DNA of 64,000 nucleotides from Dehalococcoidia bacterium (lineage in GTDB: Bacteria; Chloroflexota; Dehalococcoidia; GIF9; UBA5629). The DNA lies in assembly GCA_050011565.1 (NCBI GenBank), contig JBEKIW010000006.1, positions 27,848 through 91,847 of the forward strand, written 5' to 3'. The notes below the pieces were generated by a model, which was not told where the DNA came from, did no database searches, and saw nothing but the letters and a program-made list of their open reading frames with translations. Numbering within the stretch: the stretch's first letter is position 1; each line of letters begins with the position of its first letter. Position numbers and translations under genes: made by a program. This document shows, in pieces, positions 6,219 through 39,691 of this stretch.

Positions 6219-6243
6219 CGTACTTTAAGTCTAATGATACCTA

Positions 6244-6272
6244 TTGATTTATTGAACGCGGAAACATATACT
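6244..6272 (+). promoter_or_regulatory. sigma70-type promoter for the 6305 gene (divergent partner)
   Basis: TTGATT-17 nt-TATACT, followed by AAGGAGGT SD. Confidence 0.5.
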
Positions 6273-6304
6273 AAGGGACAAAAACAGGAAGGAGGTGACC
6301 TCGA

Positions 6305-7028: not shown

Positions 7029-7054
7029 ATACCTTACCCTCCTTAACTCACAAA

Positions 7055-8272: not shown

Positions 8273-8278
8273 TAAACC

Positions 8279-13944: not shown

Positions 13945-13960
13945 TTGAGGAGGTGTAAAA

Positions 13961-14968: not shown

Positions 14969-15006
14969 CACTTATATACTGCTACTGGGGACCGCCAAAA
15001 TACCTG

Positions 15007-15573: not shown

Positions 15574-15804
15574 GCCTCCTTTAAAATGTCAATCATGACA
15601 TTATATCGATACATTGTACAGCCTCTGTCAAGCACCCGTATATTTACATGTCGTAAGAATTGAACAACCGGCTGTTAATATGTTAAGCTTTTGCCTTGAG
15701 ACACCTTCTCAGATTTCGAGTAGATTGCCTTTTAGCCTAAAGTGATTTGTTTTCTTTTGTCAGAAAAACCTTCAAATAAACACTAAGATGCAAGGAGGCT
15801 GCTT

Positions 15805-22583: not shown

Positions 22584-22961
22584 TCATTTCCCCGCCTTCT
22601 TAAGAAACTCCTCAACCTTAGCCACCAGATCCCTCGGCTTAATAGGCTTGGAGATATACTCAGAAACATCAAAAGCAAACGGCTGGCCAAGCGACTCTGA
22701 AAAGCTGGTCAGTGCTAAAACAGGTACCTTGGCAAGCGACGGGTCTTTACGAAATTGGTCGGCAAACGTAAAACCATCGGCTACCGGCATCAATATGTCC
22801 AAAACGACTAAATCGGGCTTCTCTTTCTTTGCTTTTTCCAAGCCTTCCAGCCCGTTATAGGCTACAATCACCTCAAAAGCTTTGCTTTCCAAAGCTCCCC
22901 TCATCACTGTTACCAGGTCGACATCGTCGTCGACAAGCAAAATTTTTGGCCTCTGTTTCAT
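22584..22961 (-). CDS. single-domain response regulator (receiver only)
   Basis: ILLVDDD, DLVVLDILMP, LTS, YISKP; AAGGAGGT SD before MKQRP. Confidence 0.92.
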   Translation of the reverse strand: MKQRPKILLVDDDVDLVTVMRGALESKAFEVIVAYNGLEGLEKAKKEKPDLVVLDILMPVADGFTFADQFRKDPSLAKVPVLALTSFSESLGQPFAFDVSEYISKPIKPRDLVAKVEEFLKKAGK

Positions 22962-23013
22962 GTTAGTTACCTCCTTAATTATTTCCGTGAGACCCAACTA
23001 GCTATTGTATTGA

Positions 23014-24450
23014 CTACTTTTCAGCTACGAGCGCTCTATTTTTCGGCAAAGTAAAAGTAAATTTGCTTCCCTTACCCGTTTCAGCATCAGGACTCTCAGC
23101 CCAAATGCTACCTCCATGAGCTTCTACTATCCTCTTGGATATAGATAATCCTAAGCCCGTTCCCTTGGCTCCCACATTGCTACCCCGGAAGAAGTCATCA
23201 AAGAGTCGAGGCAGGTCATCAGGTGGTACACCAATTCCGGAATCTATTACTTCAATTCGGACTTCATTGTCACCATCTGCAGCTCTGACGAGTACGGTAC
23301 CTTCGCGAGTATAATTGATAGCATTGCTTGTCAGATTAGTTACCACCTGCTGTAGCCTCCGGTTGGAAGCGTAGACACTAGGAGAACTTTCGGGTAATTC
23401 AACTCTCAGCGTTAATCCCTTCTGTCTGGCTAAGTTATCCAGGCCATCCGTCGCCTGCTTTACCACATCGTTTAATGAGATCTCTCTCATCTCGCGATTA
23501 AGCTGCCCGGCTTCAATTCGAGGTATGTCCAGCAGGTCGGTAATCAATGTCAGCAGCCCATCGATTCTTCTGATGCCTCTTTGCATCAGGTCTTTTTGCC
23601 CATCGGTTATCTCACCAGTATACCCATCCACAATATAGGATAGCAAACTCTGAGTTGCCACAAGAGGAGACTGAAGGTCATGTGCGACAACGCTGAGGAA
23701 GCGGACAAAGCGACGCCGCTCTTCTACTAATTTGACCACTTCACCAGAAATCTGCTCCAACTCTACCTTCCTTTGTTCAAGAAGCTGGTCTTTCAATACC
23801 ACGACTTCTCGCTGCCGCCGTCTCAACTCACCGACAATAGCCGTGGCTACGTAAACTGTGGCATAGGCTAAGGTGACTAAAGCAACCAGAGCAGAGATAA
23901 CAACGCCCAGATCTTTGTATCGATCCGGAGGTACGAATCCCTCTAGATTTACATGCGGTATTGTCCCCCGATATTCCATGAGAACGAGAGCTGTAACCAT
24001 TACCATGGCAAAGGTGGTCAGTATATATACTCTACGTTTGGAAAGGAATATAGCTGCCGCATTGGTATGAATTATATACAGAAACAGAAACGGGTTTTCT
24101 ACTCCCCCGGTAAAGTGTATAATTGCCGTGAGCATTACCAAATCAAGAACGACCTGTATGTAGCCATAGGCCTCAGCTTTTCTGACTACCGAGTCAGGTT
24201 CTTGTTTCTCCAGACCTCTTGCCAAAAGAAAAAGCCAAAAATTATAGCCGGCGATAATTGCGCAAATAATATAAACAGGCAGGGTGGGAAAACCAACGTG
24301 AAATATCAGGGATGCTACGAGGGTGGCAATAACGATTGCCGGAATGGCAAGCCATCTCAGATTGATATAAACCCTGAGCCGCAGTACCAGTGCGCGCTGT
24401 TCAGGGGAATAATCCGTCGTTTTGCCTGCTTCAGAGGATGTACTATTCAT
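23014..24450 (-). CDS. membrane-bound sensor histidine kinase
   Basis: About 6 TM helices with LRWLA and TGGVENPF; H-box VAHDLQSPL, N-box NLTSNAINYT, DSGIG, GTGLGL. Confidence 0.93.
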   Translation of the reverse strand: MNSTSSEAGKTTDYSPEQRALVLRLRVYINLRWLAIPAIVIATLVASLIFHVGFPTLPVYIICAIIAGYNFWLFLLARGLEKQEPDSVVRKAEAYGYIQVVLDLVMLTAIIHFTGGVENPFLFLYIIHTNAAAIFLSKRRVYILTTFAMVMVTALVLMEYRGTIPHVNLEGFVPPDRYKDLGVVISALVALVTLAYATVYVATAIVGELRRRQREVVVLKDQLLEQRKVELEQISGEVVKLVEERRRFVRFLSVVAHDLQSPLVATQSLLSYIVDGYTGEITDGQKDLMQRGIRRIDGLLTLITDLLDIPRIEAGQLNREMREISLNDVVKQATDGLDNLARQKGLTLRVELPESSPSVYASNRRLQQVVTNLTSNAINYTREGTVLVRAADGDNEVRIEVIDSGIGVPPDDLPRLFDDFFRGSNVGAKGTGLGLSISKRIVEAHGGSIWAESPDAETGKGSKFTFTLPKNRALVAEK

Positions 24451-24659: not shown

Positions 24660-26123
24660 TTAAGGTCTCTGCACCGTCCGTATCAGGCTGCCATTCCTGT
24701 CCCTTATATTCACTTCAAGGGGCATGTTGCCCGGCAAGGCATGAGTGGCGCAGCCCAAACACGGGTCATAAGCTCTGAACGCCATCTCTACCATATTAAG
24801 TAAACCTTCCTTCACCTCGGGCCCCTTAACAAATTCCATGGCTGCTTTTTTAACGGATAAACATATCGGGGCCGCATTATGCTGGGTGGCTACTATGAGA
24901 TTCACTTTTGTAGTTTTGCCTTCAGCATCTGCCTCATAATGGTGAATCAAGGTTCCGCGTGCTGCCTCCACGCAGCCAATCCCGACCTTGCCCAATTTGA
25001 GATTCATATTCCGTATATCTTTACTGGTCAGCAAGGGGTCATTAACTATCCTCTGCATGTGTTCTGCGGCTTGAAGAGCCTCAATCAATCTTGCCCAATG
25101 ATAAGCCAGGGTGTGATGACTGGGCTTACCCCCGAGTATATCAAACATCGCCTCATATTCTTTCTGCGCCAGAGGCGTATACATGCTCTCAGCTACATTC
25201 AATCTCGCTAACGGCCCAACTCGGTAAAGCGAAGTTCCCTTATCATCGTTCAGCCCATTCCACCCCACTTTCCTCAGGTGAGTCATTCTTATATATGTCC
25301 AGGGTTCAATCCACTCACCTATGTGGTTTATGTAATCATGATAGTCGAACAAAGCAAATTCCTCGCCCTTTGGATTGACAACCCGCAATTTACCTTCGTA
25401 AAAGTTTACCCGCTTATTTTCATCAACCAGCCCCATATAATATGTGTTCAATTTATAGGCATCATTCAGTACCAGATTTAGATACTCCTTATTGTCCAGG
25501 ACAACCTGTTTGAACAATTCCAGCGCAAACTGAGTAAATTCAACAGAGAAGTCAGCAGTGTCCCTCATCCATTTTCGGTCCTCCTCTGTAATACCCCTGG
25601 ACACCCCTCCGGGTAACCCACCTTCAGGATGAGGAGGCTTGCTGGCGATATATCTGATTATCTCCCGGCACCTTTTCCTTACTTCAATAACTTTGCCGCC
25701 GATTTCTAACCCCACTTTGTTCACTACGCCGAGGATATTCCGTTCTGCAGGGGCGGCATTTGGCCCCAGCACAAAGTCCGGTCCGGCGAGAATAAAGAAA
25801 TGCAGTAAATGGTCTTCCACCATAAATGCATTATAGTGGAGCCCTCTTATCAGCTTTGCCGTAGGCGTTGGCTCCACCCCATAGAGGTCGTCTAATGCCT
25901 TGACTGACGCCATATTGTGAGGCGTGGGACAAACACCGCAAATATTAGGCATAATTCGCGGCAGTTCCTCCACAGGTCTACCCAGGCAAAACCTTTCAAA
26001 ACCTCTTAGCTCAACTACCTGCCAGTAGGCGTCGTCTACATTACCCTTATCGTCCAGGAAGATCTCAATTTTTCCATGTCCTTCAAGTCTGGTTATCGGG
26101 TTTATGGTTATCTTTTCGGTCAC
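24660..26123 (-). CDS. mvhA: [NiFe]-hydrogenase large subunit, Mvh/Vhu type (group 3c-like)
   Basis: TRLEGHG, RGFE, L1 NICGVCPTPH, L2 RAYDPCLGCATH plus cleavable C-terminal extension; neighbours mvhD/mvhG. Confidence 0.88.
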   Translation of the reverse strand: MTEKITINPITRLEGHGKIEIFLDDKGNVDDAYWQVVELRGFERFCLGRPVEELPRIMPNICGVCPTPHNMASVKALDDLYGVEPTPTAKLIRGLHYNAFMVEDHLLHFFILAGPDFVLGPNAAPAERNILGVVNKVGLEIGGKVIEVRKRCREIIRYIASKPPHPEGGLPGGVSRGITEEDRKWMRDTADFSVEFTQFALELFKQVVLDNKEYLNLVLNDAYKLNTYYMGLVDENKRVNFYEGKLRVVNPKGEEFALFDYHDYINHIGEWIEPWTYIRMTHLRKVGWNGLNDDKGTSLYRVGPLARLNVAESMYTPLAQKEYEAMFDILGGKPSHHTLAYHWARLIEALQAAEHMQRIVNDPLLTSKDIRNMNLKLGKVGIGCVEAARGTLIHHYEADAEGKTTKVNLIVATQHNAAPICLSVKKAAMEFVKGPEVKEGLLNMVEMAFRAYDPCLGCATHALPGNMPLEVNIRDRNGSLIRTVQRP

Positions 26124-26149
26124 ATTTCACCTCTTTCCTGTCTAATTCC

Positions 26150-27112
26150 TTAACCTCTTTTTTTCTTCAATCTTGAAGTTGGCACCGAGAATCTATACAG
26201 GTATCCTGCAAGGTCGGTAATCTGGTCCGCAATTCGGGTAATGTCTGCATCACTCTGTGCATCCATAATTGATGCTAAAGCAGAAACAAACTTAGCTCCC
26301 GAATCGGCTACTCCTTCCACTGGACCAAAGCATCCCCGGCATGGGACGTTGATATTTATGCAGGATTCTCCACAGCCATCCCTGGTGGCAGGGCCCAGGC
26401 AAATTATTCCTTGAGCTAGAAAACAGGTATCAGGGACAGCCTCCACCTCGTGAATCCTCTTAATTTCCCTTATCGCTAACCTTTCCGGCTTTGATTTATT
26501 TCGCTTGCAGCTATCACATAAAGCCCTCTGAGGCGCCAGGGTTGAGCCTTTAGGCGGAAGCTTATTTTCGAGGACTGCACTCAAGGCATACATCACCGAG
26601 TAAGGTGGAGGCGGGCATCCAGGTAAATAATAGTCGACATTGATTATGTCATTCAGTGCATAGACACGGTCATAGAATTCTGGGAGAGTGAGCTCTTTTC
26701 CGTTGACACGACTTTTTGTCTGTGGATATACCTTATCCGGATTGACCACTGTTGGAGCATCACGATAGACCCAGTTGAATATATCTTCTTTCGTGGTGAG
26801 GTTGGCTAATCCGGGTGTTCCTCCAAGGCAAGCGCAGGCACCAAAGGCGAGAATAATCTGAGATTTTTCCCTTAATAGCTTGGCTACCTCCTCCTGCTCA
26901 GAGTTTCTGACATTTCCGTTTATTATACTCAATGCGATATCGCCATCCTTTAGGGCTTTGATGCTGTCGTACTTAAAGTCCAGTGCCACCGGCCACAGAA
27001 CTAAATCAACCGCTCCAGCTACGCTGAGAATTACTTCGTTTATATCAACAACTGCCTCGTCACAGCCGCCACAACCCCCCAACCAGCAAATTGCAACTTT
27101 TGGCTTAGCCAT
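26150..27112 (-). CDS. mvhG: [NiFe]-hydrogenase small subunit, MvhG-like
   Basis: GCGGCD, FGACA, YLPGCPP, C-terminal CDSC...CFL..G..CLGPAT..GC...C....PCRGCFG. Confidence 0.88.
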   Translation of the reverse strand: MAKPKVAICWLGGCGGCDEAVVDINEVILSVAGAVDLVLWPVALDFKYDSIKALKDGDIALSIINGNVRNSEQEEVAKLLREKSQIILAFGACACLGGTPGLANLTTKEDIFNWVYRDAPTVVNPDKVYPQTKSRVNGKELTLPEFYDRVYALNDIINVDYYLPGCPPPPYSVMYALSAVLENKLPPKGSTLAPQRALCDSCKRNKSKPERLAIREIKRIHEVEAVPDTCFLAQGIICLGPATRDGCGESCININVPCRGCFGPVEGVADSGAKFVSALASIMDAQSDADITRIADQITDLAGYLYRFSVPTSRLKKKRG

Positions 27113-27113
27113 C

Positions 27114-27563
27114 CTATTTCCTCCCCCCAGCTTTAACCGCTTCTTTTTTGGATGTTTTCCGCACTTCTGTGCTCCTCTTCGGCGGTCCCAACTTTGCCAG
27201 GTCCTCCATCATCTCCTTAGCTAATTGCTGAATTCTGATACCTTCCGGGTCAACGGATAGCTCTATCCTGATCCTTTCCTTCTCTATACCAATTGACTCC
27301 AGCAGCCTGCGAAGGAGATATACCCTCTTTTTCGCCTCGAAGTTACCGTCTTGATAGTGGCAGTCACCTTCCGGACAGCCGAGTATCAAGATTCCATCCG
27401 CCCCTCTTTCAAATGCATCAATCATGTGCGTGGCATCAATTTTTCCTGTGCAAATAATAGGTATCCAATTATCTATCTGGTTGGAAAGGCTAGTTTCGTC
27501 TGTCAGATAACCCCAACCAAATTTGCAAGAGAAACACACTAATTTGGGTTTATATTGGCTCAA
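27114..27563 (-). CDS. mvhD: MvhD/FlpD-like [2Fe-2S] subunit
   Basis: KLVCFSC, ICTGKID, AFERGADGILILGCPEGDCHY..GN, GIEKERI. TTG start chosen from AAGGAGG SD spacing (track start is 27593). Confidence 0.88.
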   Translation of the reverse strand: MSQYKPKLVCFSCKFGWGYLTDETSLSNQIDNWIPIICTGKIDATHMIDAFERGADGILILGCPEGDCHYQDGNFEAKKRVYLLRRLLESIGIEKERIRIELSVDPEGIRIQQLAKEMMEDLAKLGPPKRSTEVRKTSKKEAVKAGGRK

Positions 27564-27598
27564 TGTCATCCTCCTTGATAATACTTTACTCAAAGCAT

Positions 27599-29392
27599 CT
27601 ATGATAAGGCCGCATACACGCTGGCTATCCTCTCAGCCGTATCGTCATCAACCATTTTTCTGGCCTGAGATGGACAAGCGACAACACACATACCACATGA
27701 CTTGCACTTAAACATATCCGTTTCAGAAACGATTTTATCACCGCGATTAACTAATCGAGATGCGTAATAGTTACAGGTATAGACACAATGGCCGCAGCCG
27801 CTACATTTGGCGATATCCACCTCAACCGGACTTAGAGATTTCTGAAATCCAATCGATACGCATGCTTTACAGGACAAACAGGGGCCGCAAGTAACACATC
27901 TTTTCGCTTCCTCTATTGCCTCTTTTAATGTCAAGCCCTTTTCAAAAAGTTGGAAATGCATTCTGTTTTCAGGTGGTATCCACAGTACCTCAGGTTCAGG
28001 CTTGTAGTCTCTCCTAACCGGTATCGTGTATCCCTCGTAGTCCCTTCTGCGGCCCTCCTTCATATCCACGCCCCTTAAACACCTGTCAATCGATTCGGCA
28101 GCCACAAGCCCTTCGGCCATAGCTTCTATCATAAAGCCTACCCTCCTCACATCACCGCCAATGAATAGCCAGGGCTTACTTGCACTTTGCAGTGTTAAAT
28201 GGTCCACATCAAGCCTGCCCCGTTCATTCAAAAGATTTTCCTTCTGGAGTAACGGCCTGTCCGGAGCCTGTCCCACAGTGATTATAAGCACGTCCCCTGC
28301 CAAATCAATGCAATCAGTACACTCGAACTTCGGATTGAAACCCTGTTCATCAAACACACTAACACATGTTGGGCATTCGATTCCCTTGAACTTCCCATTC
28401 TGCCCCATAATCTTTCTCACCCCGCGGCTATAGACTATTCTTACACCCTCTTCCCAGGCTCCCCGGATTTCCTCTTCATCAGCAGGCACACCGTCTCTAT
28501 GGTCCTTGTCCTCTCGTTCAAGCGCTACGACGGTCACATCCCCACCCTGCCTCCTGGCTGATCTGGCCACGTCAAAAGCCACGTTTCCACCTCCGGTGAC
28601 TATGACTTTTTTACCCTTGAAATAATTTGAGGCGATATTGTTGTGGCTGACTTCGTAAAGATAAGTGTGGCCATACATCACACCCGACAGGTCCTGCCCC
28701 TCCACAAATTGTCCTTCAAAGGTTAATACTCTAGGATATGGCAATCCAGTTGCCAGAAAAACTGCCTTATAGCCCTCATTCTTCAATCTTTCCAGCGTCA
28801 GTCTCCCTTCCCCAAGACGGCTTTTATACCTGACATCTATGCCGGCAATCCTAATCAGGTTCTCGACTGTAGTCTGGAGAATATCCTTCGGCAGGCGGTA
28901 GTCTGGTACCAGCCATAAGGCGCCGCCAAGCCGGTCAGAGGCTTCAACTATCGTTACCCGGTATCCTCTCTTGCTTAAATCGTAGGCACACATTAGCCCG
29001 CCCGGCCCGCCGCCTACGACAGCCACATTTTCCTTGTTTTTGGGTATCTCTAATTCCTCTTGCTCCTTTAAATGTTCAGTATATACATCCGAAAGGAATC
29101 TTTTTAGCAGTCTCCTCTTGATTGCGCCACCCTTCTTGCCATAATTACACTCCAGTTCGCAAATACCGCAAATGTAACCACAAATGTTGAAGAAAGGGTT
29201 CTTTCCATAGAGATATTCACTAATCTGGATGACACCATTTTTCGCCAAATCCGGGTCTTCCGGGAGAAGAGAAATCAGCACATTTGTCCGCTGAATATCC
29301 TCATTTATCGGGCATTTGATTTGGCACGGCGGCAGACACTGTCTTACCGCTGTCTCCACATGCGTCACCCCGGTAGCTTCAGTTTTCCACAT
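27599..29392 (-). CDS. GltD/NfnB-like FAD/FeS oxidoreductase with a C-terminal HdrA-like 2x[4Fe-4S] domain
   Basis: PPCQIKCP...CGYICGICELEC, GGGPGG, IP-type PDYRLP, GGGNVAFD, GGD, AKRCVTCGPCLSCKAC, then CSGCGHCVYTC and CKSCGMCVVACP. Start ATG 29392 behind AAGGAGGT. Confidence 0.85.
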   Translation of the reverse strand: MWKTEATGVTHVETAVRQCLPPCQIKCPINEDIQRTNVLISLLPEDPDLAKNGVIQISEYLYGKNPFFNICGYICGICELECNYGKKGGAIKRRLLKRFLSDVYTEHLKEQEELEIPKNKENVAVVGGGPGGLMCAYDLSKRGYRVTIVEASDRLGGALWLVPDYRLPKDILQTTVENLIRIAGIDVRYKSRLGEGRLTLERLKNEGYKAVFLATGLPYPRVLTFEGQFVEGQDLSGVMYGHTYLYEVSHNNIASNYFKGKKVIVTGGGNVAFDVARSARRQGGDVTVVALEREDKDHRDGVPADEEEIRGAWEEGVRIVYSRGVRKIMGQNGKFKGIECPTCVSVFDEQGFNPKFECTDCIDLAGDVLIITVGQAPDRPLLQKENLLNERGRLDVDHLTLQSASKPWLFIGGDVRRVGFMIEAMAEGLVAAESIDRCLRGVDMKEGRRRDYEGYTIPVRRDYKPEPEVLWIPPENRMHFQLFEKGLTLKEAIEEAKRCVTCGPCLSCKACVSIGFQKSLSPVEVDIAKCSGCGHCVYTCNYYASRLVNRGDKIVSETDMFKCKSCGMCVVACPSQARKMVDDDTAERIASVYAALS

Positions 29393-29853
29393 GTAAAACC
29401 TCCTTAGAAAGTTCGGAACTCTTAAAAAACAATGCATTAAAGAATAGTAGGAAGGTACTTCGGCTAGCATTCCAGGTCATAGCTGCAATGTCACCTTTGT
29501 TTTGAATTGTGGTCTCTTCACGAAAAAACCAAGCAATTATACCTATAATTGACTAAAGAAACAAGTAATTGCAATCGCGCAGCTAGGCCTTTTTTGTAAA
29601 TAAGCTGTATATCAATATAGAACTGATGCAATCAACGAGTGTAATCCTTTTGATGCTCATATTGCTATATGCTATAATTCAGCGGTTTTGTCTATGGCCA
29701 CGCAAATTTTTCTCCACCAATCAAGCGATTATCATTTCACAACATGGCAAAGTCCGTATCAGAACCAGGCCAAAGTCCGATGCCGGCCAAACAGGCAAAC
29801 TGTTAAAATATCGTACTAGATACTCCGAAATAGTTACAATTTAGGAGGTGTCC

Positions 29854-30366
29854 TTGAAGCAAGCAAAGAAACCTACGACAACCAAGTCAAAAACCGGCAA
29901 ACAGCTCACCAGCAAAACACTCCAGCAAATCAGAAAGATAGTCGAAGCCACTGATGGCAGGGCTGGGGCTCCAATTCGAGTGCTGCAGCAAGTGCAGGGG
30001 CTGGTCGGCTATCTACCACCCGAAGTTTTAAGAACTGTCTCCAAGGAGATGGGGATCCCACTGAGTGAAATATACGGCATAACCAGCTTCTATTCCTTTT
30101 TCTCGATGGTACCGAAAGGTAAATATGTCCTTCAAGTCTGTCTCGGCACCAGTTGCTACGTAAAAGGGGCCGAAAGGATTCTAAAGACGATGAAGAAGGA
30201 CTACAGCCTTGAGTCGGGTGGAATTACTTCCGACGGAAAATTCTCGCTGGAGACAGTAAGATGCCTGGGCTGTTGCGGTCTATCTCCGGTTATGGCAATA
30301 AAAGAAAATGTCTATCGAAAGGTAAAACCAAGCCAGATAAAAGACATCCTGACTTCATATAAATAG
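29854..30366 (+). CDS. NuoE/HydC/HoxE-like [2Fe-2S] subunit
   Basis: GYLPPE, VCLGTSCYVKG, RCLGCCGLSP. TTG start 5 nt after AGGAGG. Confidence 0.9.
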   Translation: MKQAKKPTTTKSKTGKQLTSKTLQQIRKIVEATDGRAGAPIRVLQQVQGLVGYLPPEVLRTVSKEMGIPLSEIYGITSFYSFFSMVPKGKYVLQVCLGTSCYVKGAERILKTMKKDYSLESGGITSDGKFSLETVRCLGCCGLSPVMAIKENVYRKVKPSQIKDILTSYK

Positions 30367-30375
30367 GAGAATGAG

Positions 30376-33300
30376 ATGAAACCACTTGCATCTGTAAAAG
30401 AACTGACACAGCTTAGAGGTAAAATACAAGAGAGGCTAGCCAAACAAGAGAAGAAGATCCAAGTTAAGGTTCATCTTGGCACGTGCGGTATATCCTCAGG
30501 AGCAAACAAGGTCCTTCAAGCTTTTCAACAGGGAGTGAAAAGCAACAAATTATCGGATGTCTCCGTGCTTAAGGCAGCATGCATCGGTTTGTGCGACCGA
30601 GAGCCGGTAGTTACCGTCGTGCATCCCGCAACCGGAAAAACTATTTATTACGACGTCACCGAGGACAAAGTCTCCAAAATTATCGAGAAACATCTTATTC
30701 GCAATAAGGTGGTCGATGAATGGAAGCTGGACACTACTGACCCGCTGCTCAAGCTACAGGAGATACGGGTAATGCATAACCAGGACCTCGACCCGATGAA
30801 TATAGATGAGTACATTGCCCGGGACGGCTACCAGGGGTTAGCTAAGGCTCTTGCCCAAATGAAGCCGGATGAAGTCATCTCAGAAATCGGGAAGGCTGGC
30901 CTGAGAGGCCGTGGAGGAGCAGGCTTCCCCACAGGCACGAAATGGACATTCGTTCGCAGCGCGGCTGGTGATGAAAAATACGTTGTCTGCAATGGCGACG
31001 AGGGTGACCCGGGTGCTTATATGAACCGAGCCGTCCTTGAAGGAAATCCGCACTCAATAATCGAAGGAATGGCAATAGGAGCTTATGCCATAGGCAACGT
31101 ACTCCAGGGCTACGCGTATGTCCGTGCCGAATACCCCCTGGCCATCGAGACATTAAATCATGCCATAACCAAGGCTCGAGAATACGGCCTGCTGGGGAAG
31201 AACATACTCGGTACCGGCTTTGAATTCGACCTGGATATATTCCCCGGCGCCGGCGCTTTCGTCTGCGGCGAGGAGACTGCCCTTTTAACCTCAATCGAAG
31301 GCAAACGAGGTAATCCACGCCAGCGACCGCCGTTCCCGGCTAACAAAGGACTTTTTGATAAACCGACTACGTTAAATAATGTGGAAACCTGGTCAAACGT
31401 TCCACAGATAATCTGGAAAGGGGCCGATTGGTTTGGAAGTGTCGGCACTGCAAGCAGCAAAGGTACAAAGACACTGTGTCTGGTTGGAAAGGTCAATAAC
31501 ACCGGGCTGGTTGAGGTTCCGTTGGGCACCAGCCTGGGTAAAATTGTATTTGACATAGGCGGTGGCATACCGAAAGGAAAGCAGTTCAAGGCAGTGCAGA
31601 TAGGTGGGCCTTCGGGTGGAGTTATTCCCATCGAACATCTGAACACCCCCGTCGACTATGAAGCTGTAACCGCCCTGGGTGCAATTATGGGTTCAGGTGG
31701 GCTTGTAGTCATGGATGAGGATAGTTGCATGGTCGATGTGGCTAAATTCTTCCTGCAGTTCACCAGGGACGAGTCATGTGGTAAATGCACTCCATGCCGG
31801 GCAGGAATACCAAAGATGCTTGCTTTCCTGACCAAGATAACCGAAGGTAAAGGAACAATGGAAGACCTGAATATACTTTCGGAGCTGGCTGACATGGTGT
31901 GCTCCGCATCCATCTGCGGCCTGGGACAAACAGCTCCCAATCCAGTTCTGACCACACTGCGCCATTTCAGAGATGAATATGAAGCCCACATAATAGACAA
32001 GAAGTGCCCGGCTGTAGTCTGCCAGGCCCTGTTCAGGGCTCCATGTCAGGGAACATGCCCTGTAGGGCTCGATGCACCGGGTTATATCGCTTTCATTAAG
32101 GAGAATAATTTCGAACAGGCTTGCCGAGTTATTATGCAGCGGCTGCCATTACCCTTAAGCGTAGGGCGGGTATGCCCTCACCCGTGCGAAAGTAAGTGTC
32201 GTCGAGGCCAAGTAGAAGAGCCGATAGCCATCAGACAACTACACAGGTTCGCTACCGATTACGCTTTTGAGCATGGATTCGAATATAAACCGGATATTAA
32301 AGAGCGGAAGAAAGAAAAGATAGCTATCATCGGCGCGGGGCCGGCAGGATTATCCGCAGCCTGGGACCTCGCCCACGAAGGATACCAGGTTGCCATATTT
32401 GAAGCATTGCCTGTAGCCGGCGGCATGTTGGCCGTCGGTATCCCTGAGTACCGGCTGCCGAAGGACCTGCTTAAAAAAGAGATTGATATCATCCAGAAAC
32501 TCGGCGTAGAAATAAAATTGAATACGCGGGTAGAAGATATAGAAGCCCTGTTAAAAGAGAATAAATATCAAGCCGTATTCATTGCTACGGGTGCCCACAA
32601 GGGAGATAAGATGAAGATTCCGGGCGAAGACCTGGCTGGAGTCTTCGACGCTATCAACTTTCTGAGAGAGCTGAATCTGGGAAAGAAAATAAAGGTGGGG
32701 CAGAAAGTAGCTGTCATTGGTGGCGGCAACTCTGCCATCGATGCAGCTCGAGTAGCTTTGAGAGAAGGTGCCAAAGAGGTACACATTCTCTACCGGCGGG
32801 AGAGGAAAGATATGCCGGCACTGACGGATGAGGTAGTAGCGGCTGACGAGGAAGGCGTTCAAATCCACTGTTTGACAGCCCCTACCAAGATTCTGGGTAA
32901 TAACGGCGTAGTCACCGGACTCGAATGCATCCGCATGGAACTTAAAGAGTTCGATACCAGCGGAAGAAGGACTCCCAACCCCATTAATGGGTCTGAGTAT
33001 ACAATGAATTTCGACACGGTTATTGAAGCCACGGGACAAAGACCGGATACTTCATTTTTGGGTGGGGACGGTATTGGCACGGCCAAGGGCGGAACAATAG
33101 CAGCCGACCCGAGAACCCTCGCCACCAATCGCGAAGGCGTTTTCGCCGGAGGAGACGCAGTTACCGGCGCAGCAACAGTAATCGAAGCTATTGCCGCCGG
33201 ACAGAGGGCAGCCTCATCCATAAAAAGATATCTCCGCGGCGAGAAACTCTCGCCGTTGGTAGAACGCAACGGCTATCAGCCAATTGCCATCCCTCCCATA

Positions 33301-33468
33301 CCTCCTACTGAGGAGGAACTGAAAGAAAGGCCGAGGGTAGCAATGACAGAGGTAGGCAGCTCACAAAGAAAAGGCTCTTTTAAAGAGGTAGTCTTGCCCT
33401 ACAGTCCGAAGGAAGCGAAAAGCGAAGGTAGCCGCTGTCTTAGATGTGATCTTGAGGTAGGAGAATAA
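30376..33468 (+). CDS. NuoF/HydB-like FMN/NADH subunit fused to a GltD/NfnB-like FAD/NAD(P)H module
   Basis: N-terminal thioredoxin-like FeS domain, GLRGRGGAGFPTG, CNGDEGDPGA, GAGAFVCGEETAL, ESCGKCTPCR, CGLG; then APCQGTCP, GRVCPHPCESKC, GAGPAG, GIPEYRLP, GGGNSAID, YRR, RCLRCD. Confidence 0.9.
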   Translation: MKPLASVKELTQLRGKIQERLAKQEKKIQVKVHLGTCGISSGANKVLQAFQQGVKSNKLSDVSVLKAACIGLCDREPVVTVVHPATGKTIYYDVTEDKVSKIIEKHLIRNKVVDEWKLDTTDPLLKLQEIRVMHNQDLDPMNIDEYIARDGYQGLAKALAQMKPDEVISEIGKAGLRGRGGAGFPTGTKWTFVRSAAGDEKYVVCNGDEGDPGAYMNRAVLEGNPHSIIEGMAIGAYAIGNVLQGYAYVRAEYPLAIETLNHAITKAREYGLLGKNILGTGFEFDLDIFPGAGAFVCGEETALLTSIEGKRGNPRQRPPFPANKGLFDKPTTLNNVETWSNVPQIIWKGADWFGSVGTASSKGTKTLCLVGKVNNTGLVEVPLGTSLGKIVFDIGGGIPKGKQFKAVQIGGPSGGVIPIEHLNTPVDYEAVTALGAIMGSGGLVVMDEDSCMVDVAKFFLQFTRDESCGKCTPCRAGIPKMLAFLTKITEGKGTMEDLNILSELADMVCSASICGLGQTAPNPVLTTLRHFRDEYEAHIIDKKCPAVVCQALFRAPCQGTCPVGLDAPGYIAFIKENNFEQACRVIMQRLPLPLSVGRVCPHPCESKCRRGQVEEPIAIRQLHRFATDYAFEHGFEYKPDIKERKKEKIAIIGAGPAGLSAAWDLAHEGYQVAIFEALPVAGGMLAVGIPEYRLPKDLLKKEIDIIQKLGVEIKLNTRVEDIEALLKENKYQAVFIATGAHKGDKMKIPGEDLAGVFDAINFLRELNLGKKIKVGQKVAVIGGGNSAIDAARVALREGAKEVHILYRRERKDMPALTDEVVAADEEGVQIHCLTAPTKILGNNGVVTGLECIRMELKEFDTSGRRTPNPINGSEYTMNFDTVIEATGQRPDTSFLGGDGIGTAKGGTIAADPRTLATNREGVFAGGDAVTGAATVIEAIAAGQRAASSIKRYLRGEKLSPLVERNGYQPIAIPPIPPTEEELKERPRVAMTEVGSSQRKGSFKEVVLPYSPKEAKSEGSRCLRCDLEVGE

Positions 33469-33470
33469 GC

Positions 33471-35459
33471 ATGAAAGAGATTACACTAACAATCGATGGT
33501 AAGCAGGTCAAGGGGAAAGAGGGCGATACTGTCCTCGAGGTCTGTCAGGCTAACAATATCGATGTGCCAACTCTCTGCCATTCAAAGGGACTGACGGACG
33601 TCGGCGCTTGCCGTATGTGCGTCGTCGATATAGAAAGAGAAAGACGACCTGTCCCGGCGTGTACCTACCCGGCACGAGAAGGTTTGGTAGTACAGACCCA
33701 AAATGAAAAACTGGAGAAATATCGCCGGCTGGTTCTAGAACTCATGTTCACCGAACGAAACCATCTCTGTGCCCAGTGCGTAGCCAGTGGCGACTGCGAA
33801 TTACAGCAACTAGGCTACCGGTATCAAATGGATAATACGCGATATCCCTATTCATGGCCTTCTCTGCCGGTTGATTCGCAGCACGAATACCTGGTCATCG
33901 ACCACAACCGGTGCATCCTCTGCGGCCGATGCATAAGAACGTGCGATCAAATTGTAGGTGTTCATACACTCGATTTCGGGTACCGCGGCTGGAAAGACGT
34001 AGTAGTAGCTGACCTTAATCAACCTCTGGGAAAGTCCACCTGTATTTCTTGCGGCGCTTGTTTTCAAGCTTGCCCAACAGGTGCCATCTTTTCCAAGAAG
34101 AGCGCCTACAAGGGCAAACGTCCGGATTCACAGGAGATAACCACTGTTTGCCCCATATGTGGTATCGGCTGTACGATTCAAGCGTTCGTCAAGAACAACA
34201 TGTTGATAAGGATAGACAGCCCCGACGCTTCCCAACACGATGGTCTACTCTGCTATATGGGGCGTTTTGGTCCCTTAAGTCAGAGTCAAGCCAGAGTAAA
34301 GACACCGATGATGCGAAATGCCCGCGGTAAGCTGGAGCCCTGCACATTGAATGAAGCTGTTGATATGGTATCTAAGAAGCTCAGCCAGCTTAAAGCGCAT
34401 AATGGGGGCGGCAGCATAGCCGGAGTGGCTTCAAGTCAGGCCAGTAGCCAGGCACTGAAAGCATTCAAGGAATTAATTACAGGAGCCCTGGGTAGTAAGT
34501 TTATGGATAGTCTCGACGGAGATGAGTATAGGGCCGTTATCAAAGGTATCGGCGCTTTCCAGGATAAGGCGGATTTAAGTACTGAAACGCCACTGGAAGA
34601 TATTTTTAATGCTGACTGTGTGCTCCTGGTCGGTGCCGACCCGTTCAAAAGCCATCCTGTAGCCGGGTCTTATATCGTTAGAGCGGTCAGACAGAACAAG
34701 GCAAAGCTCATCATTCTTGACCCAACACAAAATGTTTTACCGGATTATGCGGCGCTGTGGTTGAAGCCAAAGAAGGGTAAGGAAGCTCTGACTCTTAATA
34801 GTCTGGCTAAAGCTATAATAGACAATGGTTTGACTAAAAATTCCGCACAGGTAAAGAAAATTGCTGCTGCACTAAACAAAGTCAATATTAAGCAGGATGC
34901 TGTAGCCGCTGGAATTAATTATAAAAAGCTCATTGAGGCAGCTGAAACACTCGGCAAAGCCAAGAGCAGCGTCGTCGTCTACGGTGAAGGCATTCTAAAA
35001 CATCAAAATTCGGGGCTAATAACCGCCATATACAACCTGGCGGCTGTTTCCGGCGGACGGAACGGTGGCAAGCCGGGAATCATATCTCTAAAGTCCAAGG
35101 GAAATAGCCGGGGTGCCTGGGACATCGGTATAGCCAATAGTTCCGTTTCTGTTATAAATAACTTAGCTCAAAACGGTATAAAGGCATTATATCTGCTTTT
35201 AGCCGATGACCAGGTTGAGGCAAAAGAATTACCGGGACTGCTCAAAGGAGTGGATTTCCTGGTCGTTCAAGCCAGTTATCTATCGCCACCGGCCCAAAAA
35301 GCCAATGTAGTTTTGCCGTCACCAACCTGGACAGAAATAAGCGGAAATTACAGCACTCTGGATGGTTCGCCCATATCAGTATCGCGCTTAGTAAAGCCGC
35401 CAGAGGGGATAAGGGCAGATTGGGAAATCATCAACGAAATCGCCAAGCGCTTCAAGTAA
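33471..35459 (+). CDS. NuoG/HydA-like FeS subunit with a cofactor-less molybdopterin-oxidoreductase domain
   Basis: [2Fe-2S] (CH..GACRMC..C), HxCxxCxxxxxC, CILCGRC..C, CISCGAC..CP, CPICGIGC...LCYMGRF. The Fdh-like body has GSKFMDSLDG where formate dehydrogenases carry the Mo/W-ligating Cys/Sec. Confidence 0.85.
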   Translation: MKEITLTIDGKQVKGKEGDTVLEVCQANNIDVPTLCHSKGLTDVGACRMCVVDIERERRPVPACTYPAREGLVVQTQNEKLEKYRRLVLELMFTERNHLCAQCVASGDCELQQLGYRYQMDNTRYPYSWPSLPVDSQHEYLVIDHNRCILCGRCIRTCDQIVGVHTLDFGYRGWKDVVVADLNQPLGKSTCISCGACFQACPTGAIFSKKSAYKGKRPDSQEITTVCPICGIGCTIQAFVKNNMLIRIDSPDASQHDGLLCYMGRFGPLSQSQARVKTPMMRNARGKLEPCTLNEAVDMVSKKLSQLKAHNGGGSIAGVASSQASSQALKAFKELITGALGSKFMDSLDGDEYRAVIKGIGAFQDKADLSTETPLEDIFNADCVLLVGADPFKSHPVAGSYIVRAVRQNKAKLIILDPTQNVLPDYAALWLKPKKGKEALTLNSLAKAIIDNGLTKNSAQVKKIAAALNKVNIKQDAVAAGINYKKLIEAAETLGKAKSSVVVYGEGILKHQNSGLITAIYNLAAVSGGRNGGKPGIISLKSKGNSRGAWDIGIANSSVSVINNLAQNGIKALYLLLADDQVEAKELPGLLKGVDFLVVQASYLSPPAQKANVVLPSPTWTEISGNYSTLDGSPISVSRLVKPPEGIRADWEIINEIAKRFK

Positions 35460-35478
35460 TTGATAAGGAGTAAATAAT

Positions 35479-36015
35479 ATGGCAAAAGTGAAGGTAGCTT
35501 CGGTCTGGCTGGAAGGCTGTGCCGGATGTCATATGTCATTTTTAGACATCGATGCAGCCATAATTGATTTAGCCAACGTGGTTGAATTCACCAGGACTCC
35601 TATTACCGATATAAAGGAGTTCCCACAGGTAGACGTCGGCATCGTGGAAGGCTCTGTGGGTAATACCGAAGAGGAGGAAGTCCTCAAAGACCTCAGGGCT
35701 CATTGCAAAATTCTTATGGCCTGGGGCGACTGTGCCTGTTTTGGCGGCGTGTGTGCTATGCGCAGTACCCTTGACAAAGAAGATGTGCTAAGGCGCGCCT
35801 ATATCGAGTCTGAGAGCACTTTTGAGGGCAAAATACCGCGCCCGCCCGGTGTACCGGCACTTCTGGACCAGGTAAAACCGATAAATAATATCGTGAAAGT
35901 TGACTGTTACGTTCCCGGCTGCCCGCCGGAACCTAAAGCCATCTTGTATGGCTTAAATGAACTGCTGGCAGGTAGGATACCTGTTTTGCCCCCAGACATG
36001 ATGCGCTTTGATTAA
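35479..36015 (+). CDS. hoxY: [NiFe]-hydrogenase small subunit, HoxY type (single proximal cluster)
   Basis: [24 protein letters not shown]; 178 aa. Confidence 0.88.
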
Positions 36016-36032
36016 ATCTGAGAGGTGTTGCT

Positions 36033-37484
36033 ATGGTTTCTGAAGTTAAAAAGGCAAATGCCAAAAGAACAATTGAGATAAACCCGGTTAGCCGGATTGA
36101 AGGACACGGCAAGGTGACTATCCAATTGGATGAGGCGGGCAATGCCATTGATGCCAAGTTCAATGTAACGCAGTTTCGAGGCTTCGAGAAGTTCTGCGAG
36201 GGCAGGGTACTCTGGGAAATGCCCTCCATTACGCCCAGAATCTGCGGAATCTGCCCGGTAAGTCATCATCTGGCCGCAGCTAAAGCCTGCGATGCGATAT
36301 TAGGCGTGGAACTAACTCGTCCGGCTAAATTACTTCGTGAGCTGATGCACATGGGACAATATATCCAGTCCCATGCTCTTCACTTCTTCCATTTAGCCAG
36401 CCCTGATTTGCTATTGGGTCTGGATGCCGACCCGGCAATAAGAAACGTAATCGGGTTAATTGGTGTGAACCCGGAGCTGGCAACTAAAGGTGTATTGCTT
36501 CGCAGCTTCGGGCAAACAATCATCCAGAGTCTCGGCGGTAAAAAGGTCCACCCCAACGGCGCTGTACCCGGCGGTATGAACACACCGCTGTCAACGGCCG
36601 ACCGTGACCATTTTCTCAAGCAAATAGATTGGGCGATTGCCGATGCCGAAACCGCAATCAACATACTTAAACAGTACTACGACCAACACAACGAATTCGT
36701 TTGTAGCTGTGCCAGCTTCCCAACAGGTTATCTTGGATTGGTCGACAAAAACAACAATCTAGAGTTGTACGATGGTAAATTAAGGCTGATCGATTCCAAG
36801 GGCAAAGTACTTGAAGACCAGTTCAACCCTTCCAACTATCTCGATATCATCAATGAGCATGTGGAGGACTGGTCTTACCTTAAGTTCCCGTTTTACAAGA
36901 AGCTCGGCTATCCAGCCGGTACATACCGCACTGGCCCGCTCGGCCGACTAAACGTTTGCCAGGGAATATCAACGCCTCGAGCCAATGCCGAACTTAAGAA
37001 TTTCAAGAAAATTGGCAATGGTGGCCCTGTAGAAGGCTCGCTATATTACCACTATGCCCGACTGATAGAATTACTTTATTCGCTGGAGAGGGCCCAACAG
37101 CTCTTAGAGGACCGGGATATTTGTTCCACCGACCTGATAGTGACATCGAACAAATTTAATGAACAAGGCGTCGGTGTCTTAGAAGCTCCGCGTGGAACTT
37201 TATTCCACCATTACTGGGTAGATGACAGCGGTAAAATAACCAAGGTAAATCTCATAGTAGCTACCGGGAATAATAATGCAGCCATGAACAAGGCTGTGTA
37301 TACAGTGGCTAAAGAATTCATAAAGAATAATAAAATCACCGAAGGAATTCTTAATCGAGTCGAGGTTGCTATCCGTTGCTATGACCCCTGTCTTTCCTGC
37401 TCGACCCATGCTTTGGGTCAAATGCCGTTCCGAATCGAAGTCATCTCGGCTGACGGTAAGGTAGTTCAAGAAATAACCAGATAG
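36033..37484 (+). CDS. hoxH: [NiFe]-hydrogenase large subunit, HoxH type (group 3d-like)
   Basis: [49 protein letters not shown] plus C-terminal extension. Confidence 0.9.
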
Positions 37485-37675: not shown

Positions 37676-38689
37676 ATGATAACCGAGCAGCAAGTAAATA
37701 AAAGCATGGAAGAAGTCCTGGTTCCCGGTGTTATGCGCAGCTTGGTGAAATTAAACTTAGTCCGGCAAATCGCAGTCACTGACCAGAAAGTTGACATCAC
37801 CCTCGCCTCTGCCGCCCTGGACTCAAGCGCAGAAGACTGGCTGAAATCCAAAGTCAGTGATACCGTCGGGCAATTGGCCGGTGTCAGTCAGACAAATGTA
37901 AACTTCGTTCCGACTGCACCGAAAGAAGTTAACGACGTTGGAAACGTGGTCGCTGTCATGAGCGGCAAAGGTGGTGTCGGCAAATCACTGGTGGCAGCCC
38001 TGCTCAGTATGGCGCTCGCCCGCCAGGGAAAAGAGGTCGGCATACTCGATGCTGACATCACAGGCCCCAGTATACCCAAGATATTCGGCCTGAGCGGAAC
38101 TCGACCACGCAGCAGTGAGTCCGGCATTTTACCGGTATTGTCAAAATTAGGCATCAGTGTTATGTCCATCAATCTGCTGCTGGAACATGAGGATGATGCT
38201 GTCATCTGGCGCGGACCTATTATCAGCAGAGTCATTCAACAATTCTGGGAAGATGTGCTCTGGGGTAAGCTCGATTATCTCATAGTCGACCTGCCGCCGG
38301 GCACTGCCGATGCTCCTTTAACAGTATTACAAACCATTCCAACGTCTGGCATCGTCATCGTATTCAGCCCTCAGGAACTGGCAGTCATGGTGGTAAAGAA
38401 GGCAGTCAGAATGGCACAACAGATGAAAATCCCTATATTGGGAGTGGTGGAAAATATGAGCTACTTTACCCCACCCGGGAGCAAAAAGAAGCTGGAACTA
38501 TTTGGCAAGAGCCGGAGCCAGGAAATGTCGGAGGCAGCAGGAGCGCCTCTCTTAGCCCAGATACCCATTGACCCCGAGCTGGCTAAGCTTTGCGACGAGG
38601 GCAAAATCGAGCGGTACAGCTCGGAAATATTTGACAGCCTCAGCCGGAACTTTATTCAAGCGCTGCCAATAAAGGCAAAACAAACATAG
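37676..38689 (+). CDS. Mrp/ApbC/NBP35-family ATPase with N-terminal DUF59-like domain
   Basis: SGKGGVGKS, DADITGPS, VIWRGP, DLPPGTAD, GVVENMS. Confidence 0.9.
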   Translation: MITEQQVNKSMEEVLVPGVMRSLVKLNLVRQIAVTDQKVDITLASAALDSSAEDWLKSKVSDTVGQLAGVSQTNVNFVPTAPKEVNDVGNVVAVMSGKGGVGKSLVAALLSMALARQGKEVGILDADITGPSIPKIFGLSGTRPRSSESGILPVLSKLGISVMSINLLLEHEDDAVIWRGPIISRVIQQFWEDVLWGKLDYLIVDLPPGTADAPLTVLQTIPTSGIVIVFSPQELAVMVVKKAVRMAQQMKIPILGVVENMSYFTPPGSKKKLELFGKSRSQEMSEAAGAPLLAQIPIDPELAKLCDEGKIERYSSEIFDSLSRNFIQALPIKAKQT

Positions 38690-38701
38690 CGGGGACACGA
38701 T

Positions 38702-39678: not shown

Positions 39679-39691
39679 GAGGAGCAACAAC

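Follow-up and report, generated by a model that had tools for sequence, protein, structure and literature searches.

Group 3c [NiFe] hydrogenases of the Mvh/Vhu type found in metagenomes are routinely read as heterodisulfide reductase (Hdr)-linked, bifurcating enzymes. The C-terminal ferredoxin domain of HdrA is described as the place where MvhD feeds HdrA, which makes it the entry route of MvhAG to the flavin (PMC9012536, in its account of HdrA). Several relatives of these flavoproteins have been reported. HdrL is an HdrA with a GltD/NfnB insert (PMC2702500, and the ANME-1 HdrA9-11 as presented in PMC9012536), the GltD-like domain of StnC/NfnA is a plain, non-bifurcating NADPH:iron-sulfur (FeS) input module as far as PMC10482914 and PMC12018979 describe it, and DsrL, an NAD(P)H:acceptor oxidoreductase of sulfur metabolism, is portrayed in PMC7596348 as an FeS domain, flavin adenine dinucleotide (FAD)/NAD(P) domains, a linker of about 100 amino acids (aa) and a C-terminal 2x[4Fe-4S] domain. 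Among [FeFe] hydrogenases, HydDB group A2, "glutamate synthase-linked (putative)", has a GltD-like protein encoded beside it, and a link from H2 to NAD has been proposed for it (PMC5037454, in its group descriptions). In this study, we analyzed a 64,000-nucleotide (nt) stretch of the genome of a Dehalococcoidia bacterium (assembly GCA_050011565.1, contig JBEKIW010000006.1, positions 27,848 to 91,847; hereafter the window), in which four genes on the minus strand at 24660-29392 encode an Mvh-type hydrogenase preceded by an NfnL/GltD-type flavoprotein, here called FLAV, in the order FLAV-mvhD-mvhG-mvhA. With moderate confidence, we propose that the four proteins form one soluble complex that acts as a non-bifurcating, reversible H2:NAD(P)+ oxidoreductase, probably specific for NAD(H).

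According to the open reading frame (ORF) list and translations of the window, the four genes are tightly packed, with 5 nt between FLAV and mvhD, 1 nt between mvhD and mvhG, and 26 nt between mvhG and mvhA. This operon and its Mvh-type hydrogenase had been named in the first-pass annotation, made from the letters of the sequence, and the ORFs and family matches bear out both. The ATG of FLAV at 29392 (597 aa) is preferred over a longer start at 29470 (623-aa ORF) because an AAGGAGG sequence lies 6 nt ahead of it and because homologs share its MWKTE start, while the true start of mvhD may be the Met at residue 9, judging by orthologs. In MvhD, C23, C48, C73, and C78 are invariant among 43 sequences. 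MvhG matches VhuG with 196.6 bits over model positions 4-284 of 286 and is 46% identical, with matching Cys positions, to the MvhG of the Hdr-linked hydrogenase encoded in the same genome. MvhA matches NCBIfam VhuA with 382 bits, contains both NiFe ligand motifs of a group 3c large subunit (L1 CxxC and L2 DPCxxCxxH), and is 54% identical to the Hdr-linked MvhA of its own genome and 40% identical to HydL of the neighboring Bfu-type hydrogenase; its matches in the PDB are 7t2r_D (376 bits), MvhA 5odc_F (363), HoxH 5xf9_D (302), FrhA (117), and SH1 (94). Judged by its subunit content, the enzyme is a soluble group-3c-type (Mvh/Vhu) [NiFe] hydrogenase, though the association with HdrABC that marks group 3c is missing at this locus, where FLAV occupies that position. 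In agreement with the first-pass remark that the window has no hdrA, hdrB, or hdrC, whole-genome searches found no CCG domain on the contig of the window and, with the genome's own HdrA as query, no HdrA match there at E<=1e-10, FLAV included. The accompanying claim that the hydrogenase is wired to FLAV instead of HdrABC is correct for the locus but not genome-wide, since a canonical Hdr-Mvh system is kept elsewhere; the absence of Hdr is a property of the locus and not of the organism.

The strings on which FLAV had first been described (GGGNVAFD, VALERED, CSGCGHC...CKSCGMCVVACPSQA, and ERIASVYAALS) are all in its translation, and the GltD/NfnB-type core assigned to it is recovered by sequence and by structure. 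In Pfam, FLAV matches Pyr_redox_2 (110.7 bits), Fer4_20 weakly (26.7 bits, cut-off 25.8), and Fer4_7 (aa 529-577), and its best NCBIfam match is PRK12771, "NAD(P)-binding protein" (315 bits, under the cut-off of 516). Among PDB sequences, the core matches NfnA 9n5u_A (177 bits) and NfnI-L 5jca_L (173 bits), and matches to StnC 8oh5_C and 9bov_A cover residues 18-574. An AlphaFold2 model of FLAV built from 51 sequences (predicted local distance difference test, pLDDT, 86.7; predicted template modeling score 0.83) is closest to NfnA/StnC (Z 41-42, 460-473 aligned residues, root-mean-square deviation 2.6-3.2), followed by NfnL (Z 34.7, 405 aligned residues, root-mean-square deviation 2.5). The structural alignments, which for three of the best four chains stop at about residue 505, do not fix the placement of the tail relative to the core. 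The NCBIfam HdrA models reach 36.4-36.5 bits on FLAV against cut-offs of 1100-1300, and their matches are confined to the FAD dinucleotide motif and the tail. With Pfam, FLAV shows neither a NuoG nor a Molybdopterin domain of the kind expected for a Bfu-type NfnA/StnC, and the nearby NuoE/NuoF genes belong to the divergent hydrogenase operon. By these matches, FLAV is best described as an NfnL/GltD family member with a DsrL-like layout, and not as an HdrA, an HdrL, or a Bfu NfnA. The combination of a GltD core, a linker, and a 2x[4Fe-4S] domain in one chimeric protein is not new as an architecture because it has been published for DsrL, to go by the domain description in PMC7596348.

At the N-terminus, the FeS domain of FLAV has six clade-invariant Cys (C23, C27, C71, C75, C78, and C82). 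The corresponding domain of NfnB has about seven Cys plus a Glu and binds two [4Fe-4S] clusters; by comparison, the FLAV domain scores barely over the Fer4_20 cut-off. Since the upstream CxxC of canonical NfnB is absent from FLAV, the distal cluster may be ligated differently or be missing altogether. Behind the core, the linker aligns weakly with NfnA 552-601 (domain 2, 4.9 bits), and its Cys motif with the one that follows the GltD domain there. It might be speculated that the linker Cys motif C499-C511 binds an extra cluster bridging to the tail; model confidence in this region is low (pLDDT at residues 506-517).

An acidic residue at the end of strand beta2 is the classical NAD signature of Rossmann domains. 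In FLAV, this strand ends in ALEREDKDHRDG and not in YRR, and the clade continues as LE[C/R/S]EDKxx[R/K]DG, which includes a 5-residue insert. By motif rule, YRR was found in none of ten FLAV-clade sequences, nine of which are acidic and one other (FGCED, in locus L084), and it is present in the HdrL, the HydB-GltD, and the NfnB-like protein of the same genome as well as in the related protein P0123. The YRR motif is treated as a marker for NADP(H) in the DsrL work (PMC7596348, in its treatment of cofactor binding). The acidic LERED end in place of YRR suggests that the cofactor of FLAV is more probably NAD(H), and the first-pass hint in this direction, drawn from the end of the same strand, was a reasonable one. 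About half of the HdrL and GltD-ferredoxin (Fdx)-MvhD relatives share the "(C)LE" type of site, and the acidic site can therefore be taken as a regular variant. The FAD fingerprint and GGGNVAFD are conserved, and G267, G268, A272, D274, and R277 are invariant in the ten clade members, so that the nucleotide domain appears to be under selection.

The likeness of the FLAV tail to the extreme C-terminus of HdrA, as first proposed, is supported in two ways. Firstly, the best single-domain PDB match of the last 100 residues is the HdrA C-terminal ferredoxin domain 5odc_A 577-633 (43.4 bits, ungapped); the next single-domain match is below 33 bits, and MvhB tops the overall rank by summing five weak domains, the best of 20 bits. 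Secondly, a hidden Markov model (HMM) of the tail, built from 40 full-length orthologs and the FLAV of the window, was searched against every ORF of the genome with 50 aa or more (15,303 in all). Its best non-self match is an HdrA C-terminus (48.8 bits), followed by an uncharacterized 276-aa ferredoxin-domain ORF (43.8 bits) and a second HdrA (43.4 bits), and the rest of the genome scores 34 bits or less, the C-terminus of its own HdrL included (28.9 bits). Against the representative set, HdrL extreme C-termini reach up to 55.8 bits and P0123, the nearest fusion, 55.1 bits; the median of the GltD-Fdx-MvhD fusions is 28.8 bits, and StnA/NuoG-type proteins stay at or below 20.5 bits. The tail thus seems to belong to the HdrA-C-terminal, MvhD-adjacent class of ferredoxin domains, with a modest margin over generic ferredoxins.

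The arrangement FLAV-mvhD-mvhG-mvhA is conserved far beyond chance. Of 7999 candidates scored in a word-indexed protein search, 1839 reached E<=1e-20; identity to FLAV is 74-94% among the 120 listed, nearly all of which have 596-597 aa. Within the 50%-identity library, only P0121 (56%), P0123 (44%), P0124 (39%), and fragments stand above a background of 41% identity or less that consists mostly of HdrL-like proteins of about 1500 aa. A scan of one genome per species gave 193 relatives, and the best 80 loci (64-99% identity) were kept; their record labels name Chloroflexota in 60 cases and Thermodesulfobacteriota in 12, the remaining 8 being from other groups or unlabelled, and single odd labels may be binning errors. 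Among the 61 loci that extend 3400 bp or more downstream, the four genes follow each other on the same strand in 60 by a strict positional rule; among the 73 that extend 450 bp or more, mvhD comes next after FLAV in 72. The remaining locus is L094 in both counts; mvhD, mvhG, and mvhA are again in order there, and its FLAV match is split. An HdrA-like tail and conservation beside mvhD, on which the first-pass annotation had staked its reading, are therefore both found. Two relatives join the parts in a single chain: P0123, labelled Nitrospiraceae, and the fragment P0125 (57% identical) are FLAV-MvhD fusions. In all 69 FLAV-linked MvhA orthologs the L1 motif is N[IV]CG[VI]CP, with Asn where RxCGxC has Arg; the Arg is kept in both paralog types, as RICGVC in Hdr-linked MvhA and as RICGIC in 17 of 17 HydL.

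Within the class, the distribution of the cassette is patchy. An even sample of 301 class genomes gave 21 FLAV matches at E<=1e-150, 12 of them at 61% identity or more and 9 at 53-55%. Ten of 13 other genomes of the same genus have an intact FLAV ortholog, which in one of the ten (G004) is split by contig ends; two same-genus genomes, each 77% complete, show no FLAV ortholog. In G007, of the same genus, a copy with 73% identity and 8 in-frame stops (G007:C16:155261-157030) is an apparent pseudogene, and the cassette therefore seems to be dispensable in some lineages. Locus L032 of genome G024 (2910-10559, 68% identical) has a 545-aa gene with Fer4 and CCG (HdrD-like) domains directly upstream of FLAV and hypA/hypB after mvhA; the CCG-domain protein may be an HdrBC-like acceptor for the FLAV module. 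In L049 and L050, a second, divergent mvhD-mvhG-mvhA set (at about 13700-15790) follows the kinase/receiver pair, with 32-33% (mvhD), 46-47% (mvhG), and 59% (mvhA) identity to the genes of the window.

In the mechanism that we propose, H2 would be split at the NiFe site of MvhA, and single electrons would pass through the three [4Fe-4S] clusters of MvhG to the [2Fe-2S] cluster of MvhD and from there to the 2x[4Fe-4S] tail of FLAV. From the tail they would reach the one FAD over the Cys site of the linker, the clusters of the N-terminal domain, or both, and the FAD, having gathered two electrons, would reduce NAD(P)+ in the embedded Rossmann domain by hydride transfer. Without bifurcation, the net reaction would be H2 + NAD(P)+ = NAD(P)H + H+, and the whole path would be reversible. 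The linear wire from NiFe to FAD is read in this way because MvhD with an HdrA-type ferredoxin domain is a known entry route and because the GltD-like domain of StnC/NfnA is a plain NADPH:FeS module. The docking of MvhD on the FLAV tail is proposed by analogy with HdrA, as the latter is depicted in PMC9012536, and from the natural Fdx-MvhD fusions. Likewise, the order of the clusters inside FLAV is what we infer from its domain layout.

Several points weigh against this proposal. The conserved N-terminal FeS domain could serve as a second exit to ferredoxin, as in NfnL. The nucleotide site has lost YRR and gained a clade-specific insert, so that NAD(H) is a cofactor deduced from the sequence and nucleotide binding may have been lost. 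The lead of HdrA over a generic ferredoxin-domain ORF in the tail search is small (48.8 vs 43.8 bits). HdrA is encoded in all five FLAV-carrying genomes checked, and cross-talk with Hdr may occur. Moreover, a hydrogenase of the NAD/ferredoxin type is encoded next door, which makes a plain NADH hydrogenase look redundant.

The best-surviving alternative, which we nevertheless consider unlikely, is a flavin-based bifurcating or confurcating hydrogenase in which the FAD of FLAV acts like the bifurcating FAD of NfnL, in other words an Nfn with a hydrogenase in place of NfnS. A hydride from NAD(P)H would enter, and its two electrons would part, one reaching ferredoxin over the N-terminal clusters and the other reaching H+ over the tail, MvhD, and MvhG; run backwards, H2 and reduced ferredoxin would together reduce NAD(P)+. 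The NfnL-like core (5jca_L 173 bits, Z 34.7) is consistent with this, as are the two separate FeS arms of FLAV with clade-invariant Cys in both, the fact that, elsewhere, an MvhD paired with an HdrA-type domain is part of a bifurcating Hdr complex, and the Bfu-type hydrogenase operon linked to the cassette in 21 of the 56 loci. However, the closest structures, StnC and NfnA, have the same fold and are non-bifurcating, and the CxxC missing from the N-terminal domain is the one that ligates the distal, ferredoxin-facing cluster of NfnB (by the ligand numbering given in PMC7596348). The NADPH motif is likewise missing from the clade, and NADH is estimated to be too weak for producing H2 plus reduced ferredoxin except at very low H2. 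The window ORF list shows no ferredoxin gene within the FLAV-mvhDGA operon. FLAV has one flavin only, and bifurcation from H2 to NAD+ plus ferredoxin on a single FAD would be without precedent in the families considered. The first-pass suggestion of a pyridine-nucleotide-linked, possibly bifurcating enzyme stands as regards the NAD(P)-type flavoprotein partner; for bifurcation there is no positive evidence, and, treating it as neither shown nor excluded, we prefer the plain non-bifurcating reading.

A broader form of the bifurcating alternative is, in our estimate, slightly more doubtful still. It sees in FLAV a single-flavin, NfnL-type bifurcating module in which a hydrogenase arm (tail, MvhD, MvhG, and MvhA) replaces NfnS, so that NAD(P)H, ferredoxin, and H2 are coupled reversibly, and it takes GltD-Fdx-MvhD more generally as a portable adaptor. 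If it were true, the enzyme would add a fifth kind to the electron-bifurcating hydrogenases, related neither to HydABC/Bfu nor to Mvh-Hdr, and GltD-Fdx-MvhD would be a portable pyridine-nucleotide adaptor for hydrogenases, MetVF, and other enzymes in place of HdrABC.

It is also conceivable, but rather improbable, that the second Rossmann domain of FLAV no longer binds a nucleotide and that the protein relays electrons from H2 through its FeS clusters and FAD to some other acceptor, be it ferredoxin, a carrier of the thiol/disulfide or sulfur type, or a partner enzyme, much as DsrL serves DsrAB. The insert and the loss of YRR would fit such a role, and FLAV equals in architecture DsrL, which hands electrons to a partner protein (PMC7596348, in its account of DsrL). 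The CCG-domain gene in front of FLAV in L032 and the sister-clade proteins found without any hydrogenase point the same way. On the other hand, GGGNVA, D274, and R277 are invariant, the acidic beta2 end is the NAD signature already referred to, and the "(C)LE" site is normal among HdrL and GltD-Fdx-MvhD relatives. Moreover, of the reference genes searched for in the 80 loci, only the downstream kinase/receiver and the upstream hydrogenase operon recur, each reported in under half of the loci with enough flank. Finally, it is very improbable that FLAV is incidental and that MvhADG docks on HdrABC encoded elsewhere as an ordinary Hdr-linked group 3c enzyme: the three Hdr systems of the genome and the HdrA of the five genomes checked would permit it, but the canonical hdrA adjoins its own mvhDGA, the FLAV-mvhDGA order is kept across two phyla, FLAV-MvhD fusions exist, and the FLAV-linked MvhA has its own L1 signature (N[IV]CG in 69 of 69, vs RICG in the paralogs).

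The first-pass annotation also proposed that FLAV is an HdrL from which the HdrA flavin core had been removed, and this part was not supported. In a tree of the core (160 rows, 8 of 168 having been dropped for short matches; quick IQ-TREE option, with support from the Shimodaira-Hasegawa-like approximate likelihood ratio test only), the ten MvhDGA-linked FLAV form one clade with support 100. The first outgroup is made up of two FLAV-like proteins without mvh neighbors and P0121 (support 98), followed by P0124, a stand-alone 595-aa protein (96), and then by the fusion P0123 (100, stem length 0.49). The HdrL and the HydB-GltD of the same genome fall elsewhere. The HdrL and fusion architectures are interleaved in the tree, needing 22 and 13 changes, respectively, and the FLAV clade is sister to no HdrL; a simple origin by deletion from HdrL is therefore disfavored, a rejection tempered by the weakly resolved deep branches (60 of 157 inner branches open). 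The tree rather favors repeated reshuffling of the GltD module with the Fdx-MvhD unit. The 150 representatives comprise 20 GltD-Fdx-MvhD fusions, 45 HdrL-like, 4 GltD-HdrBC, and 4 StnA-like proteins and 77 without a panel match. In genomes of relatives, three GltD-Fdx-MvhD fusions of about 710 aa stand directly ahead of MetV (DUF5981) and MTHFR or DUF3786 genes (Table 1), and these loci look like a methylenetetrahydrofolate reductase wired to a pyridine-nucleotide module instead of HdrABC. The P0124 type, labelled Candidatus Desulfofervidus auxilii, sits outside the FLAV clade, and mvhD, mvhG, and mvhA are absent from its flanks in the 12 metagenome loci analyzed (of 18 returned). P0121, from the sister clade, is a FLAV-like flavoprotein fused to a receiver domain. 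Together with the kinase and receiver genes downstream of mvhA (among the 48 loci that extend 6500 bp or more downstream, 24 have a kinase after the cassette), this fusion hints at two-component control acting on the flavoprotein itself. A specific kinship between the P0121 receiver and the stand-alone receiver of the window was considered and rejected, their 23% identity over 95 aa being generic.

The genome (2.0 Mb, 8 contigs, 99.2% complete; the window lies on contig C6) encodes five MvhD copies, twelve CCG-domain matches, and HdrA-like matches at four genes, and its Hdr clusters are on contigs C1 and C2 (Table 1). In the Hdr cluster of C1 (G000, about 336343-338684; L002 and L018, 10727-12685), the second hdrA and probably its mvhD each contain a single in-frame TGA, and the same TGA occurs in the hdrA orthologs of four other genomes; these TGAs are likely to be selenocysteine codons. 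Two cytoplasmic hydrogenases stand back to back in the window: the operon that runs divergently from FLAV is of the Bfu type, and its large subunit matches 7t2r_D, the HydL chain of the electron-bifurcating NiFe-HydABCSL, with 614.8 bits. The enzyme of 7t2r is named as coming from A. mobile where PMC12018979 refers to it. The NuoF-like subunit (1030 aa) of this operon has a C-terminal GltD/NfnL domain with a YRR (NADPH-type) site. Among the 56 loci that extend 4500 bp or more upstream of the cassette, 21 have a Bfu-type operon there, which runs divergently in 15 and on the strand of the cassette in 6, and the NuoF-GltD fusion is kept at 63-96% identity in these 21. Past this operon, at 37676-40360 on the plus strand, are genes for Mrp/ApbC-like, NifU-like, and MobB-like proteins and a 190-aa HoxU/NuoG-N-terminal-like FeS protein, which may serve in the assembly of the hydrogenases or as additional wiring for them. 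Scans for promoter-like (14 vs 11.1) and terminator-like sites (7 vs 6.6) stayed at the level of shuffled sequence.

Table 1. Positions of the FLAV-mvhDGA cassette, its parts, and related genes (window coordinates unless a locus or contig is named)
Feature	Position	Strand	Description
FLAV	27599..29392	-	597 aa, stop codon inside coordinates; first gene of the operon; NfnL/GltD-type FeS-FAD flavoprotein
Shine-Dalgarno AAGGAGG	29399..29405	-	6 nt ahead of the ATG at 29392; read from the sequence
FLAV aa 18-106, divergent N-terminal FeS domain	29075..29341	-	Fer4_20 26.7 bits; six clade-invariant Cys
FLAV aa 120-445, FAD Rossmann (GGGPGG...VE) and embedded nucleotide-binding domain (GGGNVAFD)	28058..29035	-	Pyr_redox_2 aa 122-428
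FLAV aa 446-517, linker with clade-invariant R-C499-x2-C-x2-C-x2-C-x2-C511	27842..28057	-	Invariant alignment columns
FLAV aa 518-597, C-terminal 2x[4Fe-4S] ferredoxin domain of HdrA C-terminal type	27602..27841	-	Proposed MvhD docking site
mvhD, [2Fe-2S] adaptor subunit	27114..27593	-	159 aa from TTG start; FlpD 104.4 bits
mvhG, small subunit, three-cluster Cys pattern	26150..27112	-	320 aa; VhuG full-length 196.6 bits
mvhA, [NiFe] large subunit	24660..26123	-	487 aa; L1 NICGVCPTPH, L2 DPCLGCATH, then 26-aa C-terminal extension
Histidine kinase	23014-24450	-	Downstream of mvhA; NCBIfam matches
Stand-alone receiver protein	22584-22997	-	Downstream of mvhA, past the kinase; NCBIfam matches
Divergent five-gene Bfu-type NiFe hydrogenase operon	29848-37484	+	NuoE-like, NuoF-GltD fusion, NuoG-like, short small subunit, large subunit
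Hdr genes of contig C1			hdrC-hdrB-hdrA-mvhD (hdrA read through one in-frame TGA), then directly hdrBC-hdrA-mvhD-mvhG-mvhA-protease (canonical)
Hdr genes of contig C2			2-oxoacid oxidoreductase, then HdrL (1160 aa), mvhD, hdrBC, HdrA-MvhD fusion
GltD-Fdx-MvhD fusion and MetV loci	L035 5648-9096; L036 5701-9396; L037 9730-13440		

These findings suggest that a sizeable conserved subset of group 3c hydrogenases, in 12 of 301 sampled Dehalococcoidia species and in Thermodesulfobacteriota, is wired to a pyridine-nucleotide-type flavoprotein instead of Hdr, and models of peat, sediment, and subsurface anaerobes that use the customary label would therefore mis-assign the flow of H2. It seems that MvhD with an HdrA-type ferredoxin domain is a reusable docking unit, and related genomes have this unit, fused to a GltD core, ahead of MetV/MetF genes. 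Uncultured anaerobes carry the cassette widely, and with four subunits and a single flavin the enzyme would be a clean biochemical target, the key question being whether ferredoxin is required.

In the literature searched, we found no description of a GltD/NfnB/DsrL-like protein encoded with mvhDGA; supplements lay outside this search, so gene tables for Dehalococcoides or sulfate reducers may list one. The nearest published concept found is the group A2 [FeFe] hydrogenase (PMC5037454), which belongs to another hydrogenase superfamily, has neither MvhD nor an HdrA-type tail, and is also uncharacterized. With MvhADG-HdrABC and VhuADG-Hdr of methanogens (group 3c; PDB 5ODC, 9SW2, and 9SFI), the locus shares the three hydrogenase subunits and the HdrA-type C-terminal ferredoxin domain; it differs in an operon that lacks the HdrA flavin core, HdrB, and HdrC, in a flavoprotein of the NfnL/GltD type, and in the L1 Asn of MvhA where the paralogs have Arg. 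A GltD-type module and a ferredoxin domain of the HdrA C-terminal type, with MvhD encoded alongside, are found in HdrL as in FLAV (in this genome, mvhD follows the HdrL gene), but FLAV is without the HdrA thioredoxin-reductase core and groups with no HdrL in the core tree, and the HdrL of its own genome has YRR. The domain order of DsrL, set alongside from its published description (PMC7596348), is identical to that of FLAV, whose context is mvhDGA and not dsr, and we do not file FLAV as a DsrL. The closest match in fold and cofactor motifs is to NfnL/NfnB of NfnSL and the GltD-like domain of StnC/NfnA (PDB 5JCA, 4YLF, 8OH5, 9N5U, and 9BOV; Z 35-42, 400-473 aligned residues, 31-34% identity for the FLAV core), and with StnC/NfnA the linker behind the core is held in common to about residue 505. 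Unlike these proteins, FLAV is partnered by MvhD and a hydrogenase and not by NfnS or a BfuBC core, its tail is of the HdrA type and not of the NuoG type, LE.ED with the 5-aa insert replaces YRR, and the N-terminal CxxC is missing.

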